Source of the DNA: Tricharina praecox | Lineage: Eukaryota | Direction: 5' to 3' | Assembly: GCF_024521635.1 (NCBI RefSeq) | Contig: NW_026250420.1 | Span: forward strand, 620,001-684,000 | Length of the DNA stretch: 64,000 nucleotides | Shown: piece after piece, positions 47,993-55,960 of the stretch | How positions within the stretch are numbered: the stretch's first letter is position 1 | Layout of the letters: each line of letters starts with the position of its first letter | Translations under genes and position numbers: made by a program | Notes under the pieces: model-generated | The model's input: the letters and a program-made list of their open reading frames with translations, nothing else | Databases searched by the model: none | Told to the model about the DNA's origin: nothing

Positions 47993-50607
47993 CAGAGGAA
48001 TGTATTCTATATATGTTTAGCGGGTTCAAGGCAACATCAAAGTTGGCAGTTACGAGTAACGAGAGGCGGCGAATTGGAGAAGAAAGAAAAAAAGTATGAA
48101 GGCGCTGCCTGAACGGACCGACTGAATGAGAGCGGTGGGCGGTGAGAGGGAGTACTGGTGATGGTGGTGAAGAGTGGTTGGGTTTGTTTGGTTAGTGGAA
48201 GGTGGTGGTGAAGATGGTGGTGGTAGCGGTGGTAGCGGTGGTAGCGGTGGTGGTTGATGGTAGTGGTGTTGGTGGTGGTGATGGTGGTGTTGGTGGTGTT
48301 AGTGGTGGTGGTGTGTGTGCGCAGCAGAGCAGATCAGAGTACGGGTGGCCGGCGGTGGTGGGGGAAGCGACAGTTCTTGCGGGCGGGGGTGCGAATATCG
48401 GACAACCACAACATGACACAACCCACCAGAAAAAGCCGAACAAATTCAGCAAGAAGTAAGCGAGTCGAGACAGCTAAGTCAGTAAGTAAATAAGTGTGTA
48501 GGCAAGTAAGTGAGTGACACCTGGTTGGAGCACGAACACAAGCGACTCACCCGAGTGCTCTGGCGCCCTACTATGGCTTTACGTGAGCGAGACTGCTGCT
48601 GATTTGCAGTTGCGGTGATGAGCTACGGTGATGGTTATGGTTGTGGTTGCTGTGGTATTGGTGATGGTGGTGGCGATGCTGGTGGTGGAGGTGGCCGTGG
48701 TGGTGGTGATCGTCGTCGTCGTCGTGGACGTCGTGGTGGTGGTGGAGGCTGCAAAGATGTTGAAACTGCAGTAAGGGCCATATTGGGCCAATGGATGTCC
48801 GAGAAAGGGAATGTTGGGGGCTGATTTTCGAGACACTTGGCGTCGATCAGGGAAGTCTGGCCGCGGCTCACGATGGAGTAATATGGTACTTATTAAATCA
48901 TAATACGCCCATAAAAGACCGAACAGGTAATCAAGTAGCCCGCAATTGATTGCAGACATTGGACAAGGGCCGTGATTGCCACAGAAACAAGCCACGTTAA
49001 CGTTTGCCCTCAACAACGCTCAGCACTGCTCTCAAAGGCCTGCACCCCATCCAAGTATATATGATATGTATGCGTATCAGCAAGCAAGTACATGGACTAC
49101 TTACTCAAGTATATGTGTATCCCGGACTCTTTGTTCCCACCTGCCGGTAGCTATCTCCTCCCATGTGAACCTGACCTGATCTGATTGATCATGATGTGTA
49201 TGGCGATATGTCAACGGTGCCGGCGATTGGTGGCGGTGGTACATACATACATACCTGGTACCAGAGGGGGAAGTATTTAGGTAACTTTGTAGAGTACACT
49301 ACAATGTGCGGATCGCGCTCGGCATCTCTCCCCCCCCCCTCCCCTCCCAATTGCAACACCTTGTAGCACCAACACGTACTATGGCTCTCGATATTGCGGT
49401 GGTCGCCCCTCCCACAGTGTGTGGATTCATTCACTCCGATAGATAGAGTACCATACATACTTCATACATACCAATGGGACAAGGGATTCTCGAGTAGGTA
49501 CCCAGCACGTCTGCAGGCCCAGGAAGCAAGTGCGTTTGGGTATGTGTGTATGTACCGTTCACTACCCATAGTAGGCAGAGTAAGTACATAACACAGGTAA
49601 GTATGTGGTGTATAGTAGGTACTGACTTCCTCATCCCGGTTGGCGCACTCGTAGAATACTCGTAGAATACTCCAGAAGACGGAACTCGGGAATCCTTGAC
49701 GACACACCCATCCACCGCTGGCTGTGCGTGGTGGATGAGCTTAGAGTAAATACTCTACTCATGTAGGTACTTGGTTGGCAAACAACTTCCCAACCGACCA
49801 CATTTCTGCCGCCGCCCCGTCGCGTCCAATGCCAATCGTCCCCGTCGGCCCGTGCCACAGCGCGATCCCCCCAGGGCGAAGTTCGCTCGCTCTTCCGGAC
49901 CGTGTTCGAATCCTCGATCGACCGCTTCGAGGGGAGGAGTGGCTCCACTGCAGATATATACCCGTATGGATCTACCTAGGGTAGGTAGGTAGGTAAGGTG
50001 CCTAAAAGCCAATCAGTAGGATATCGGTACGGACTAGAGTAGCTAGCGATGAGCATGAGCCGGTAGTTACTAGTAACTGGATGAAGGCAAAGAAAACCGG
50101 AGGCCGCATTTGGCCGGAATACTGTATGTATGTATATGTACGGTGTACGATGTACTGTGTCAGTACTCGCAGACGGAACGTAGAGGTACGTATGTAAAAG
50201 GTTGGTGAGGTCGAGCGCTCGGTAGTTCTCCATGGCTGTGATAGTAGGTTAGGTATGTAGCAATGTAGCATCGATGAATAACGACTGGATTGGCTCGAGG
50301 TGAATCGTGACTAATGGCGTTTCGTTTCTTGGCTTCGGGTGCGCAGCGCCGCAGCGACGACCGGGTCGCAGTTTCAATTCGGATACAGACAGACCATCAC
50401 ATGCCTGATGGTGGTAACATACTGTAACACTGATTAGAAGAGGTTGCAGTATGATACATCCATACGTTACCCACGCCTTGTAGCTCCCTGTTATCATCGG
50501 GGCTGGAGTTGGAGCCTGGAGTCACGATCGTGGCAACACCGCAGGCGCTGATCTTGTAGGTACTGTAGATCGGATCGATTAGATAAAGCTGCGAAACCGG
50601 CAACGTG

Positions 50608-51540
50608 TGGTTGGGGACATCTAGTGCCGGAGTAAGTGGACATTCGGATCAGAGGGAATTAAAATCCAAATGCGGTAACATATGAGCATTTATTAAATAC
50701 ATTTGATATGTTTTTTCACGCTCCATGGCCCCGCAGGGACCGAAAATCACAATATCTCGGCCAGTTTTTACCCGTTTTCTTCGATCAAACACTCACCTAG
50801 ACCACACTGGTGCCCTCATTCCATCAGTACCATTTTTCCACCGGCCCTATGCTGTTGACCAGATGTCCGCTGCCAACTCCAGAGCTCCATGGTCCCGCCG
50901 GGACCGAAAATCACAATATCTCAGCCAGTTCTTGCCCGTTTTCTTCGATAAAACACTCCTCTGGATCGCATGAGCATGCTAATTCCATCGGTTCCATTCT
51001 TCCACAGGTCTGTTACCATTGACCGCGCTTCCGCAGCCCGCTCCAGAGCTCCAGAGCTTCAGCGCTCCACAGCCCCACTGGGAACGAAAATCGCAATTTC
51101 TCGGCCAGTTCTTGTCAATTTTCCAGGGCGCAGATATACAAAGCTCATCAATAGGTTAGCGATAAGCTGGAATTGTAGCAAATTTGTAGGTAATTTTTTC
51201 CCATTTATGTACATAATATTCTTTGTCACAACAATTAGCCACCATATTATGCTGCCAAGACATCACTATCGGGTAATCAGGCGTGCCAAGACTTTCTAAT
51301 GAGGAACTCAGCCGTGCTAAGATTGGGCTGTGGCAGCCTTGCCCCTAGGCATTCCCGGGACCTCCCATACTAAATCATTTTTCGTTCATTTATCTTGGAT
51401 CTTGGTTGCCACTCAACCACAACGTTTAAAAAAAATTGGGCTCTTTGAAAGAGCTCTTTTTTTAATTAGGTTGTTGTTGTGCACTAACCGAACGTCAAAA
51501 GTGGGAGTGAAAAAACTCCGGGTCTAGATGTCCCCAACCA
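50608..51540. mobile_element. Non-autonomous TIR DNA element (MITE-like), 933 bp, with internal 164-bp tandem repeats
   Basis: 26-bp TIRs TGGTTGGGGACATCTAG(TG/AC)CCGGAGT (24/26 match) at 50608-50633 and 51515-51540. Flanks are TG and TA. Internal repeat units start at about 50720, 50884 and 51064. Confidence 0.82.
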
Positions 51541-52309
51541 TATTCTCTCGTTGGACTTTGGACTGCGGGCTGACCAGGACTCTCCGACTCATGCTGTCAA
51601 CATAGGTAGCACAGGCGCTAGTTACCTTCATCAGATTGATTAGATAAACCACGAAAAGCTGTGAGTCTGCGACGTACCTATTCTCTCTTTGGACTGCTGC
51701 CTGACAAGGACGCTCCGACTCATGCTATCCACCGGTAACTAGGGAGGGGGCACGGGGATCGAGTGACATAACCCTGAAAGGAAGGGGGCGAGAATTTAAG
51801 ATGATGGAGAAGTTGAGGTTGTATTCATCTTCGAAGAGCCATCTAATATGGTTCCTCTCTGCTGCCTACAACGTTGGTGCCACTCAATGCGGCTAGTCCG
51901 GCTGACACATCACTCGGATCCACCGGATCCGACTAGGAAGTACATAATCTCTCCTCTCCCATGGTGGCAGACAACATCGAGGCGCCTCTGTGTCGCGGCG
52001 AGCATCGGTATGGAGCGACCTGGTGTTAGTTATGGGGGGCGTGACTAGTGCAGACCTGATGCGGTTGTTGAACGTTGAATTGTTTTCTGTTGTGGAGCAA
52101 CAGCAACAGCAGTGAGAACCTACCTACTGCGAAACTCGCCTTCACAACATGGGGCTTGAAGATGATGGGTTCCGTTAGCCTTCGCTCTCCGTGATGCGAC
52201 ACAGAAGGTACCGGCACGAATACGGTGAATCATCAAGCGGGGGGGAAGATATAACGGAGGATCATTATTGATTCAATATTCAGTACTAATTCGATTGATA
52301 CTCCACATT

Positions 52310-53006
52310 TTACCGATGGGTGCTTTGCTTCCGAGCCTTATTGATGTAATCCAAGCATTTCCCAAGTTTGGTTTCTTCCGGCTTGTTGATCCTCGCCACG
52401 TTTTGGCAGTTAGGCTCTTCACATATAGGATCTCCAAAGTCGTGGTCGGAATCAGAAGGGTAGTCCTCAGGTAGCACCTCCACCCCAAGGGTTCCCCAGA
52501 GGCTTGCACACTTGACCATCCAGCTCCTCCAATTTAGTTCGTGACCATCTGATTCGGCGGGGACCACATCCGCTTTGGGGGGTAAGAACCGTAGACATAA
52601 TCTGCCAGATGGCAGTATTCGTGTGCGACTAATCCGAAGAATTTGGCTATATTACGATCCCGACTCAGCATCCATCCAACCCCGACAATCGGTGCACACG
52701 CTTACCGGACGACCTCACAGCACATCTCTTAACAAGAATAATCAGACCATAGTCACAGTACGCCAAACCACGATAACCCTTGGTCTGGGCCCTACAATCG
52801 ACTATGACGGCGATGCCACGGCTCCCCTTCTCGCGGGAGTAATTTGCGACTCCGCGGTCACACAGCTTCCAATCCGTGAAGTCGATAAACATCTTTGCGA
52901 GCTCTTCGAGATTATTTTTGTACGGGGCATACAGCGCCTTCCTCCAGGATTTGATCAGACGGAGATCCGCGGCGGTCGATTGTTCTGCGTAGATGGGCAG
53001 TTTCAT
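52310..53006 (-). CDS. Divergent SprT-like (GCNA/Spartan-type) zinc metalloprotease, about 212 aa if the frame is restored; exons 53006-52706 and 52646-52310; frame change at 52573-52582 (possible pseudogene or assembly error)
   Basis: TATAAA 120 nt upstream and GCCATG start. Removing intron 52705-52647 (GTAAGC..TAG) gives GLAYCDYGLIILVKRCAVRSSAKFFGLVAHEYCHLADY (HExxH). The -1 frame continues DGHELNWRSWMVKCASLWGTLGVEV, resembling the recalled fungal GCNA segment PHGxEFKxWAxKCxxxFGxxGIxV. Confidence 0.7.
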
Positions 53007-53125
53007 GGCAGATAGCGGATTGCGGTTGAGATGGGCGGTGGTTCGTAGGCGGTGGAGCGAAGTACAGCGTTCGTTAACCGCTGTGGTTGAAAATGTTGGA
53101 GCTGGAACTGTGGGCCACCGTGGGC

Positions 53126-53131
53126 TTTATA
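53126..53131 (-). promoter_or_regulatory. Candidate TATA box of the SprT-like gene
   Basis: TATAAA on the minus strand, 120 nt upstream of the ATG at 53006. Confidence 0.4.
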
Positions 53132-55049
53132 CTGAATGATGAGAGGGAAGCAATGAGCCCCCGGGAAGCGACTGAAGCTGCGAAAATTTTGAGCAACCGG
53201 AAATTTGCTTCCCAGCAAACGGTTACCATCAACTTGAACCGTGGAGTCCCACTCGCTGCCGCTGCGGCCACAAAGTCATGGACGCGGTGTAGAGTACTTG
53301 ACAGCCTTTCAACAGACACCCAACCCCTCCGCCCGCCCAAACAGCGCAGCTTCCAGTGTCTTCTGCCTCCCGGGATCCCGCATACTCGCCCACCAGTAGT
53401 ACTGTTATTACATACCTCATACTTCCCGCCGAGCTTCCTCCCCGCCTGGTAAACATACTGGTTTCGAGTTCAGCTCAGTTCAACATGATCGGGCTGGTGC
53501 ACTACAGGTCTGCAAGCTCTTCCGAGGCCAACCGCAGACAATACAACTCCGCTCTAGCGGCCGGTTACAGCTCAAAAGTTCGAACTACTTGAATGAAATC
53601 GCCTTGTGGTGACTATCTAGGTAGTCTTGGAATCTTCCGAATGTACTTCGTGTGTTTTGGAAGTACTCATTGGAACACCGCATCGAGGTCGATAAGCACT
53701 GACCATTATTTGCAGAGTACAGATAAAGGCTGCCGAATTCTGATTCCTTAGAGTACCTAGAATTCCGATAACCCTGACCGTTGGGCCACAGTTCGGCGAT
53801 GGGACACCACGACTACCTGGTACATACCACGGAGCACTGGTGATCACTCCAAAACTCCACAGCCCCACAGTCTCGCACCCTAACTCCGGATACCGGTCAG
53901 AACCATGATCCATCTTGATCGGCGCCCGGGACGGGAGATGTACATACGGTGCACGCCTTCCAAGGCACTACCACGGTTAACATGCCTGTGATACCGTACT
54001 CCACGCCACGCCGTGAACGCTTCACCTTCGTTGGCCGAGGAATCCTCCGCCGACTAGAGAAAGCGAGTGACGCCCCATGTATCCCCTACAGTACATGGCG
54101 AACACTAATAACTATCGCCGTTCCTGAATCCTCTGTCAGCACTTCCCATACTCAGTATGTACCAGTACTCGCACAGGCTGCGATCTTCTCCTGAGTCTTC
54201 TCGGACATCCCAGGGTACACGAGGCAGGGAGCGTATGTAATCATTGGCTCTCACGGAGTCACGGAGGCTCGCCGTCGAACACCGCCCTCCCTCCCATACG
54301 AGAAACGCCCCTGGAGGCTGGTGATGATGATGAAAGAGTTGATCGATCCGATCCTCCACGTCGCACCAGGCCGTGCCGTGCCGTTAGTGGCTAGAAGAAC
54401 GGAAAGAAGCTTCCGTTCCCCGGAATCTTTGGGTTCGGATGTTGCGCTCCCCCTCCCCACACGCTCCCCGTCCAATGGCTCGGCCCGGACCGGACCCACA
54501 GCGAGCCGAGTCGAACGCTACAGCGATGGAGAAGGGAGCGCGCTGCGCGCCGACGTAGTTTCTGCGGCTCTGAGCTCTGCCGGAATATGGAGGAGGATCT
54601 CCGTCTGCAAGCACAGCGGCACTGGCTATCAAACTGCAATGTCTATGCCTTGCCTTATCTACCTACCGTATGAGGTTTAGATTGGCATTCGCTTGGTGAA
54701 TTCTGCATCGGTGCTCCATCTTGAAGATTAAGGTACCGAACGTTGAATCGCTGCTGATCATGCTAGATGAATCGTGACTCCCAAGTGACGACGAGTGATA
54801 CCACCTCTCCCTTCGATAATTGCACTTCCGGCTCGCGATCTGTATGATACTATGATATCTTCTCTTATTGACCGTACTGGTATCGCTACACGTCGTCGTC
54901 ATGGCCCACCCACCGCCCGCCGCTCACTGCCCACCGCTCGCCAATCGCAAATCGCAAAAAAAGAAAACCCAACTCCCAAACTCCAGCCGCCGCACCCAAA
55001 TGAACACAAAAAAAAATAAAAAATACCAAAATACCAAACCTAGATCACA

Positions 55050-55960
55050 CTAAAGTCCTACACGATCTAGCACGCCCCTCCATCCACTGACGACCTTGTA
55101 TCCGCGGCCAACCACGGGCTTCGGCTTCCGCGGGCCGTCGCGGTAGATGACGTCGACCACGATCGTTGCCAGGATCATCGCTTGCAGCAGCAGTGTGCCG
55201 ATCAGTGCCCATCTCGCCGCGAGCTATCGTCGTCATTAGTATCATTGCAGCGAGTGAGCGAGCGAGCGGAGAAGAGGGGACCCACCATCTCACCGCACAG
55301 GAACGGAAAGTCGATCTCGACGTCGTTCCAAGTCTGTTGTTTCGCCACACACACCCAGAACAGCGTCGGCGTATCGCCCCTGTTCGTCTTCCTATCCAGC
55401 GCCACCGCGGCGATGACCATGCTCAAGCAGACGCCCGTGATTGTCAACGCCGAGAACTTATGCGCCGCGGTGCCCAGCTTCCTAACATTGACCTTGATGG
55501 AGGCGATAAAGAACGCGAGGTCTGCAGCGAACGTGACAACCGCAGCCGCAAGCATGACATACGTCGCATCGAAGAAGATATCTCTCGGCCAAACATTAGC
55601 TGCGTCGCCCTGCTGCTCATGCGTCGCCGCCTGCGTCGACGTGTACGTGTACAGCACGCTGCCGATGCTGCCCAGCGTGGTGCCGGACGCGATCATGCTC
55701 GTGATCCGCAGCGTCAGCCGCGTGCGGTAGTTCAGCTTGTGGTAGTCCAGCTTCGAGATGAATTTGCGCACGCCCTGTTTCGTCGGCATTCCTGTGCGCC
55801 GCCGCCGTGGCTTCTTCGGCTTCGATTGAGAGACGAGCGGCTCCGCGGCTGGGCGCCCCGAGGATTCGTCTTCGCTGAAGTCCTCGTGGAATAGGCTGGC
55901 GCTGGAGCGCCCGAGCGTGCTGATGTCGCGGAGACCGCCGGTGGGGTCCATTACTGCCAT
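55050..55960 (-). CDS. Hypothetical 4-TM membrane protein (MARVEL-like topology), about 282 aa; exons 55960-55286 and 55223-55050
   Basis: Strong coding bias and ACAATG start. Three hydrophobic segments lie in exon 1. Removing intron 55285-55224 (GTGGGT..ACTAAT..TAG) adds a fourth (WALIGTLLLQAMILATIVVDVIY). Loop cysteines in WVC and FLC. Confidence 0.8.

Follow-up and report, generated by a model that had tools for sequence, protein, structure and literature searches.

The minus-strand locus at positions 53006-52310 of the window, i.e., the whole stretch of 64,000 nucleotides of Tricharina praecox DNA analyzed here (C15:620001-684000, in a genome of 38.4 Mb and 104 contigs), is best explained, with a probability of about 0.68, as a recently pseudogenised, frameshifted duplicate of GCNA that has neither the disordered region (IDR) nor the HMG box of that protein. 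The locus is homologous to the protease core of GCNA, its intron falls at the same position, the flanking domains are lost, and the reading frame is broken in three sequence sources.

A first-pass annotation had seen in this place a minimal, stand-alone HExxH+H protease of about 212 aa, assembled from two unremarkable ORFs. The ORFs (53006-52665 and 52651/52567-52310, minus strand) are present as claimed, and so is the 59-nt GT-AG intron said to bridge them, whose splicing is predicted from its own sequence and from a position shared with GCNA. Once this predicted intron is removed, the HExxH motif joins the frame of exon 1, as proposed, and exon 1 shows a weak codon bias in that frame. The full-length protease does not survive: exon 1 and exon 2 down to the stop at 52310 add up to 638 nt, which is not a multiple of three; the spliced frame ends after 137 aa, with no His after the HExxH motif; and one extra base would be needed for the 212-aa protein. 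The third His, announced within a DGH triplet, does exist (the triplet at 52549-52541, the His codon at 52543-52541), in a frame different from that of HEYCH. In that other frame it is accompanied by WRSW, which supplies the W of H-G-x-x-F-x-x-W, by the LGVEV strand, by a C-x4-C pair (52423-52406) and by one Cys of the second pair. The likeliest position of the break is the C6 run listed in Table 1, and anywhere in about 52600-52550 fits. Read across the break, the third His stands at +23 from the second His versus +14 in three fungal GCNAs, so that the lesion may exceed one base.

Table 1. Coordinates of the locus, its parts and the neighboring repeats, in window positions.
Feature	Positions	Strand	Remarks
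TATAAA box, putative promoter	53126..53131	-	about 120 nt 5' of the ATG, past a pyrimidine-rich stretch; consensus match only
Exon 1	52706..53006	-	100 codons plus one nt; start codon within GCCATGA
Phase-1 intron, 59 nt (predicted)	52647..52705	-	GTAAGC...TAG
Exon 2, spliced frame	52534..52646	-	HEYCH, then TAA at 52536-52534
HExxH motif	52609..52623	-	HEYCH, identical in Wilcoxina and Trichophaea GCNAs
C6 run	52577..52582	-	no other run of five or more C in the gene; the frame break most likely falls here
Rest of the GCNA core, out of frame	52310..52576	-	stop at 52312-52310; no HMG box
Short dispersed repeat, 3' of the gene	51760..51980		one family with 52050-52090, at least 24 other loci (40 of 131 candidates scored)
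MITE-like non-autonomous element	50608..51540		933 nt, 26-nt terminal inverted repeats; neighbor only

With regard to the parentage of the locus, the evidence comes from profiles, from pairwise alignment and from the position of the intron. Read with an X at the break, the gene scores 32.0 bits (E 4e-12 as a single comparison) against a profile of three Pyronemataceae GCNAs, two of which are 96% alike; in a control with 2000 shuffles, 1495 were reported and the best reached 5.3 bits. Masking of the HExxH motif leaves 12.1 bits, exon 1 alone gives 13.8 bits, and exon 1 and the HEYCH frame match the profile better than any other of the 1647 six-frame ORFs in the window. In direct comparison, exon 1 pairs with the GCNA exon that precedes HExxH, aligning to the basic linker, the long helix and the beta-strands of the SprT domain, while exon 2 pairs with the HExxH helix. 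The GCNA gene of the same genome has a 53-nt phase-1 intron eight codons before the first His, and the window intron lies at the identical codon and in the same phase. A degenerate pattern, A-H-E-[FY]-C-H-L, has two matches in the 38.4-Mb genome, namely this locus and GCNA, and none in the reversed control.

The identity to the GCNA of the same genome is 40 of 148 aligned residues, or ∼27%. Over 187 columns, the locus is identical to that GCNA in 44, to the one of Wilcoxina in 50 and to the one of Trichophaea in 49, whereas the latter two match the T. praecox GCNA in 106-107; Wilcoxina mikolae and Trichophaea hybrida provide its closest named relatives, at 60% identity, which points to a genome in Pyronemataceae or close to that family. 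The alignment goes on in the out-of-frame part, where it takes in the third His, the Trp, the LG-x-x-V strand and C-x4-C, although taken alone this part is only weakly similar to the three GCNAs (shuffle p 0.10, 0.02 and 0.05), and the HEYCH frame alone gives p 0.09, 0.96 and 0.78. No unjoined piece of the gene matches Pfam SprT-like (PF10263).

The core is of the GCNA type and not of the SPRTN type, in agreement with the initial assignment: the alignment score is 101-108 against all three GCNAs (p 0.001) and 32 against the SPRTN of the same genome (p 0.40), which rules out SPRTN as the parent. The similarity to SPRTN/Spartan (the C20 copy; PF10263 + PF22934) is that of a common HExxH zincin family; there is no significant SPRTN alignment, and the zinc-binding domain of Spartan was not found. 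A PF10263 search of the genome returned three matches: one is SPRTN on C20, the other two are exons of the GCNA gene on C61, and the window locus is absent from them; the separate full-length GCNA that the first-pass annotation had suggested looking for is the one on C61. Protein and pattern searches, which very diverged paralogues may have escaped, found the GCNA-type copy to be single in the genome (one further match at E 0.2, L024). As a side remark, the frame of the full-length GCNA (L004 644-900) runs beyond the HMG box and adds a hydrophobic tail that neither named GCNA has, which probably reflects an unrecognised intron or an earlier end of the protein. Next to SPRTN on C20, and convergent with it, is a plus-strand ORF (L002 2361-3362) that bears a short motif, possibly the centromere-chaperone domain of Scm3, and past it a proline-rich tail.

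Compared with GCNA/ACRC (PF10263 + HMG box; the C61 protein, KAF8250191.1 of Wilcoxina mikolae and KAF8541901.1 of Trichophaea hybrida), the locus shares the collinear SprT core, the HE[FY]CHL motif, the third-His region, the first C-x4-C pair and the intron codon. It differs in having no disordered region and no HMG box, in the loss of one Cys from the second pair, in a loop nine codons longer before the third His and in the frameshift that removes this His. The absence of both flanking domains had been noted from the start, and it stands: in the alignment, the start codon falls where the disordered region of GCNA comes to its end, no disordered-region ORF or tblastn match occurs within 49500-55200, no HMG match was found in the flank, and the frame ends 13 codons past the last Cys. 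The C2C2 zinc finger is incomplete, with three of four Cys remaining, all of them in the out-of-frame part. The GCNA features present in the locus are the homologous SprT-like domain and the HExxH motif, and those it lacks are the third His in the same polypeptide, the disordered region, the C2C2 zinc finger and the HMG box, the last being present in the GCNA of Wilcoxina mikolae. According to a statement in PMC5098910, the disordered region of GCNA is retained “almost without exception”, and a table in PMC3730723 gives one SprT-like HMG gene for Podospora; the comparison literature also included PMC9240642.

Whether the break is real can be judged from three soil-metagenome runs (X1-X3), all from one study, that contain DNA of the locus. 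The X1 contig covers 51484-52903 with one substitution in 1420 bases and no gaps. The X2 contig (depth 4.3) covers 52248-52949 and represents a haplotype ∼1% divergent, with eight substitutions and 701 letters for 702 window bases, i.e., a one-base deletion. This gap was considered as a frame-restoring change and ruled out by span arithmetic, the net effect being -1. The X3 contig (52184-52335) lies off the break site and shows a net loss equal to that of X2, which suggests that the deletion sits at the 3' end. The gene is therefore broken in both contigs that span the site, as well as in the reference. Because X1 is gapless there and the X2 deletion cannot restore the frame, the break is not an assembly error, and because it is common to haplotypes ∼1% apart, it is not a private mutation. 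In the homologous frames, the X2 substitutions are five replacement and three silent (pN/pS 0.46, p 0.24), compatible with neutrality or with selection; in the 137-aa frame they count as five replacement and one silent. The residue after the third His is E in the reference versus G in X2 and in all three GCNAs; the H-E of the reference fits decay.

As for the history of the copy, a neutral simulation (substitutions only, 400 runs per identity level) that took a 150-codon GCNA core to 27-55% identity gave a mean of 3.4-5.4 stops, and none in 0.75-2.25% of the runs. The copy has no stops in the homologous frames, all its alignment gaps save one preserve the frame, and it keeps GT-AG, the TATAAA box and a favorable start-codon context. 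These signs point to selection for an open frame during most of its history, followed by a late break. Retroposition is ruled out by the retained intron, and neither flank shows similarity or synteny with the GCNA locus.

Another question is whether the gene might be intact in practice, with the break bypassed by a second intron of 41 nt (52589-52549) or by a -1 frameshift at C CCA AAG, giving a protease of 199 or 212 aa. This is unlikely. Among 32 frame-opening GT/GC-AG introns, only the 41-nt candidate retains the third His, and at 33.1 bits its product does as well as the frameshifted reading; however, its donor is GTTCTT, a branch motif is lacking, the third His would come to stand at +9, and the X2 haplotype has CGG in place of the CAG acceptor. 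A correctly phased heptamer of the X XXY YYZ type, a possible slippery site, does lie at the break, yet slippage by one base in a C run followed by AAA yields such a heptamer unaided, and no frameshift-stimulating RNA structure was found, the RNA 3' of the heptamer folding worse than shuffles in four of four windows (z +1.2 to +2.8). In favor of an intact gene, the promoter-like box, the start context and the first intron look undamaged, and in PMC13092972, zebrafish Acrc without the IDR is given as rescuing 50.9% of mutant embryos versus 95.1% for the wild type, so that such a core can act in vivo. A further reading, somewhat less probable again, would have the 137-aa product kept as a catalytically dead half-domain, a decoy or regulator of GCNA or of its substrates. 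The stop in the last exon, the break common to both haplotypes and the codon bias of exon 1 would suit it; against it are the five replacement and one silent X2 differences in the 137-aa frame, with no sign of constraint, the low confidence of the exon 1 model (pLDDT 52.6), and a downstream frame still open over 88 codons, which fits a recent break rather than long use of a short form.

An intact gene with a homopolymer error in the assembly is highly improbable: a C6 run is where such an error would be expected, and it is met by an independent, gapless soil contig and by a second haplotype with no restoring indel. The chance that the GCNA resemblance is accidental and the ORFs are noise is close to nil, since an intron common to both genes in codon and phase, collinear motifs along ∼150 residues, the shuffle controls and a motif found twice in the whole genome weigh more than the unjoined pieces without a Pfam SprT-like match and the large searches without a homologue. 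The preferred reading, a pseudogenised GCNA duplicate, has to face objections of its own. The pN/pS ratio between haplotypes would suit either neutrality or selection, the break is common to haplotypes ∼1% apart, the depth of X2 is low and all three runs are from one study. The profile consists of three GCNAs, two of them nearly the same, and the out-of-frame part is weak when taken alone (p 0.02-0.10); the third His lies farther from the second His than in the three GCNAs, and the simulation covers substitutions only.

How might such a copy have come about? A dispersed, DNA-level duplication that kept the intron would have copied only the C-terminal core of GCNA, starting where the disordered region ends and reaching as far as the zinc finger, and placed it behind a start codon of its own. 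The copy would have diverged fast yet stayed an open reading frame for long, and its past role was presumably that of a zinc metalloprotease of the HExxH+H type. In this type, HExxH and a third His (H467 in zebrafish) bind zinc and the Glu activates water, as described in PMC13092972; in PMC10815813, SUMO-interacting motifs of the disordered region are reported to recruit ACRC to crosslinks. Without this SUMO-binding region and the HMG box, which target GCNA to DNA-protein crosslinks, the copy may have acted as an untargeted or retargeted protease. It would have been broken later by a frameshift past HExxH and ahead of the third His, with the C6 run as the probable site. Its present output would be a 137-aa peptide at most, with two of the three zinc ligands, and this product should be inactive because the third ligand is missing.

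Comparable events are on record in Drosophila, where PMC11210505 counts, for the Spartan family, 27 duplications and no fewer than 20 losses, and where a preprint (bioRxiv 10.1101/2025.05.14.653954) describes an amplification of Gcna confined to the SprT-encoding half and proposes it as a meiotic driver. The fungal copy resembles these duplicates (the D. obscura Gcna copies with an amplified SprT-like region, the D. miranda Gcna pseudogene) in its probable birth and death; it differs in being one dispersed, ∼27% identical, unamplified and broken copy, without evidence of drive. It is a long shot that a stand-alone GCNA core is still active in Pyronemataceae, either intact in a sister species or rescued by cryptic splicing or -1 recoding, and engaged in meiotic genetic conflict in parallel to the sex-ratio driver of Drosophila obscura. 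If the bare protease core was long-lived, the birth and death of Spartan-family genes known from Drosophila would occur also in fungi, and the copy would offer a natural minimal GCNA core to be sought in sister genomes; as a single broken copy, it would be an evolutionary footnote and not a new enzyme. An IDR-less fungal GCNA copy appears to be unreported, Gcna duplication and loss being already known in Drosophila; no report of a GCNA duplicate in these fungi was found in titles and abstracts, and supplements or JGI annotations could list copies.

Searches elsewhere were made mostly with exon 1. A word-index search, at near and longer lengths, gave no real homologue, and phmmer over 1.84 billion representatives gave a single match, a spurious one to a 2693-aa bacterial repeat protein. 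The JGI metagenome motif scan had no matches; in the JGI protein scan, one of 55 candidates, a phage exonuclease-like ORF, was rejected. In the ESM Atlas, the top score for exon 1 was 0.89, below threshold, from Mutator-like fragments, and a PDB sequence search with alignment returned nothing under E 0.06. The word-index, phmmer and JGI searches exclude only close, annotated orthologues, because GCNA itself was not returned. The predicted fold of exon 1 alone has two helices followed by four strands, and its best fold-search match (Z 4.9) did not rise above background.

The surroundings of the locus had been described as a TE-rich interval, which holds for one side: the MITE-like element and the short repeat lie 330-1700 nt downstream, while the 2.2 kb upstream are single-copy and the gene itself is within no repeat. 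Capture inside a transposon is ruled out on these grounds. A RIP signature is absent, with TpA/ApT of 0.65 and (CpA+TpG)/(ApC+GpT) of 1.16, values that resemble the genome window. The gene neighbors are a catalase gene on one side and on the other a HEAT-repeat gene that we label transportin-like. A minus-strand ORF at 55202-55960 encodes ∼250 aa, has a basic stretch at the N-terminus as well as several hydrophobic segments, and gave no Pfam matches. The summed depth of the short repeat family is very high in the soil runs.

The MITE-like element occurs at no fewer than 15 other loci, at 75-85% identity, and contains internal tandem units of 164-180 nt. Elsewhere, TA borders the element on its left in four of four cases and on its right in three of four; in the window copy, the left TA is TG; we take these flanks to be a Tc1/mariner-like target. 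A local duplication of ∼130-140 nt (50569-50607 with 51541-51601, and 51630-51732) seems to have received the element in one of its copies. Three partial copies (C66:6685-7213, C60:5725-6253 and C23:6917-7445) are of equal length, score and identity, lie 5.7-7.4 kb from the contig start, and may mark a shared subtelomeric block.
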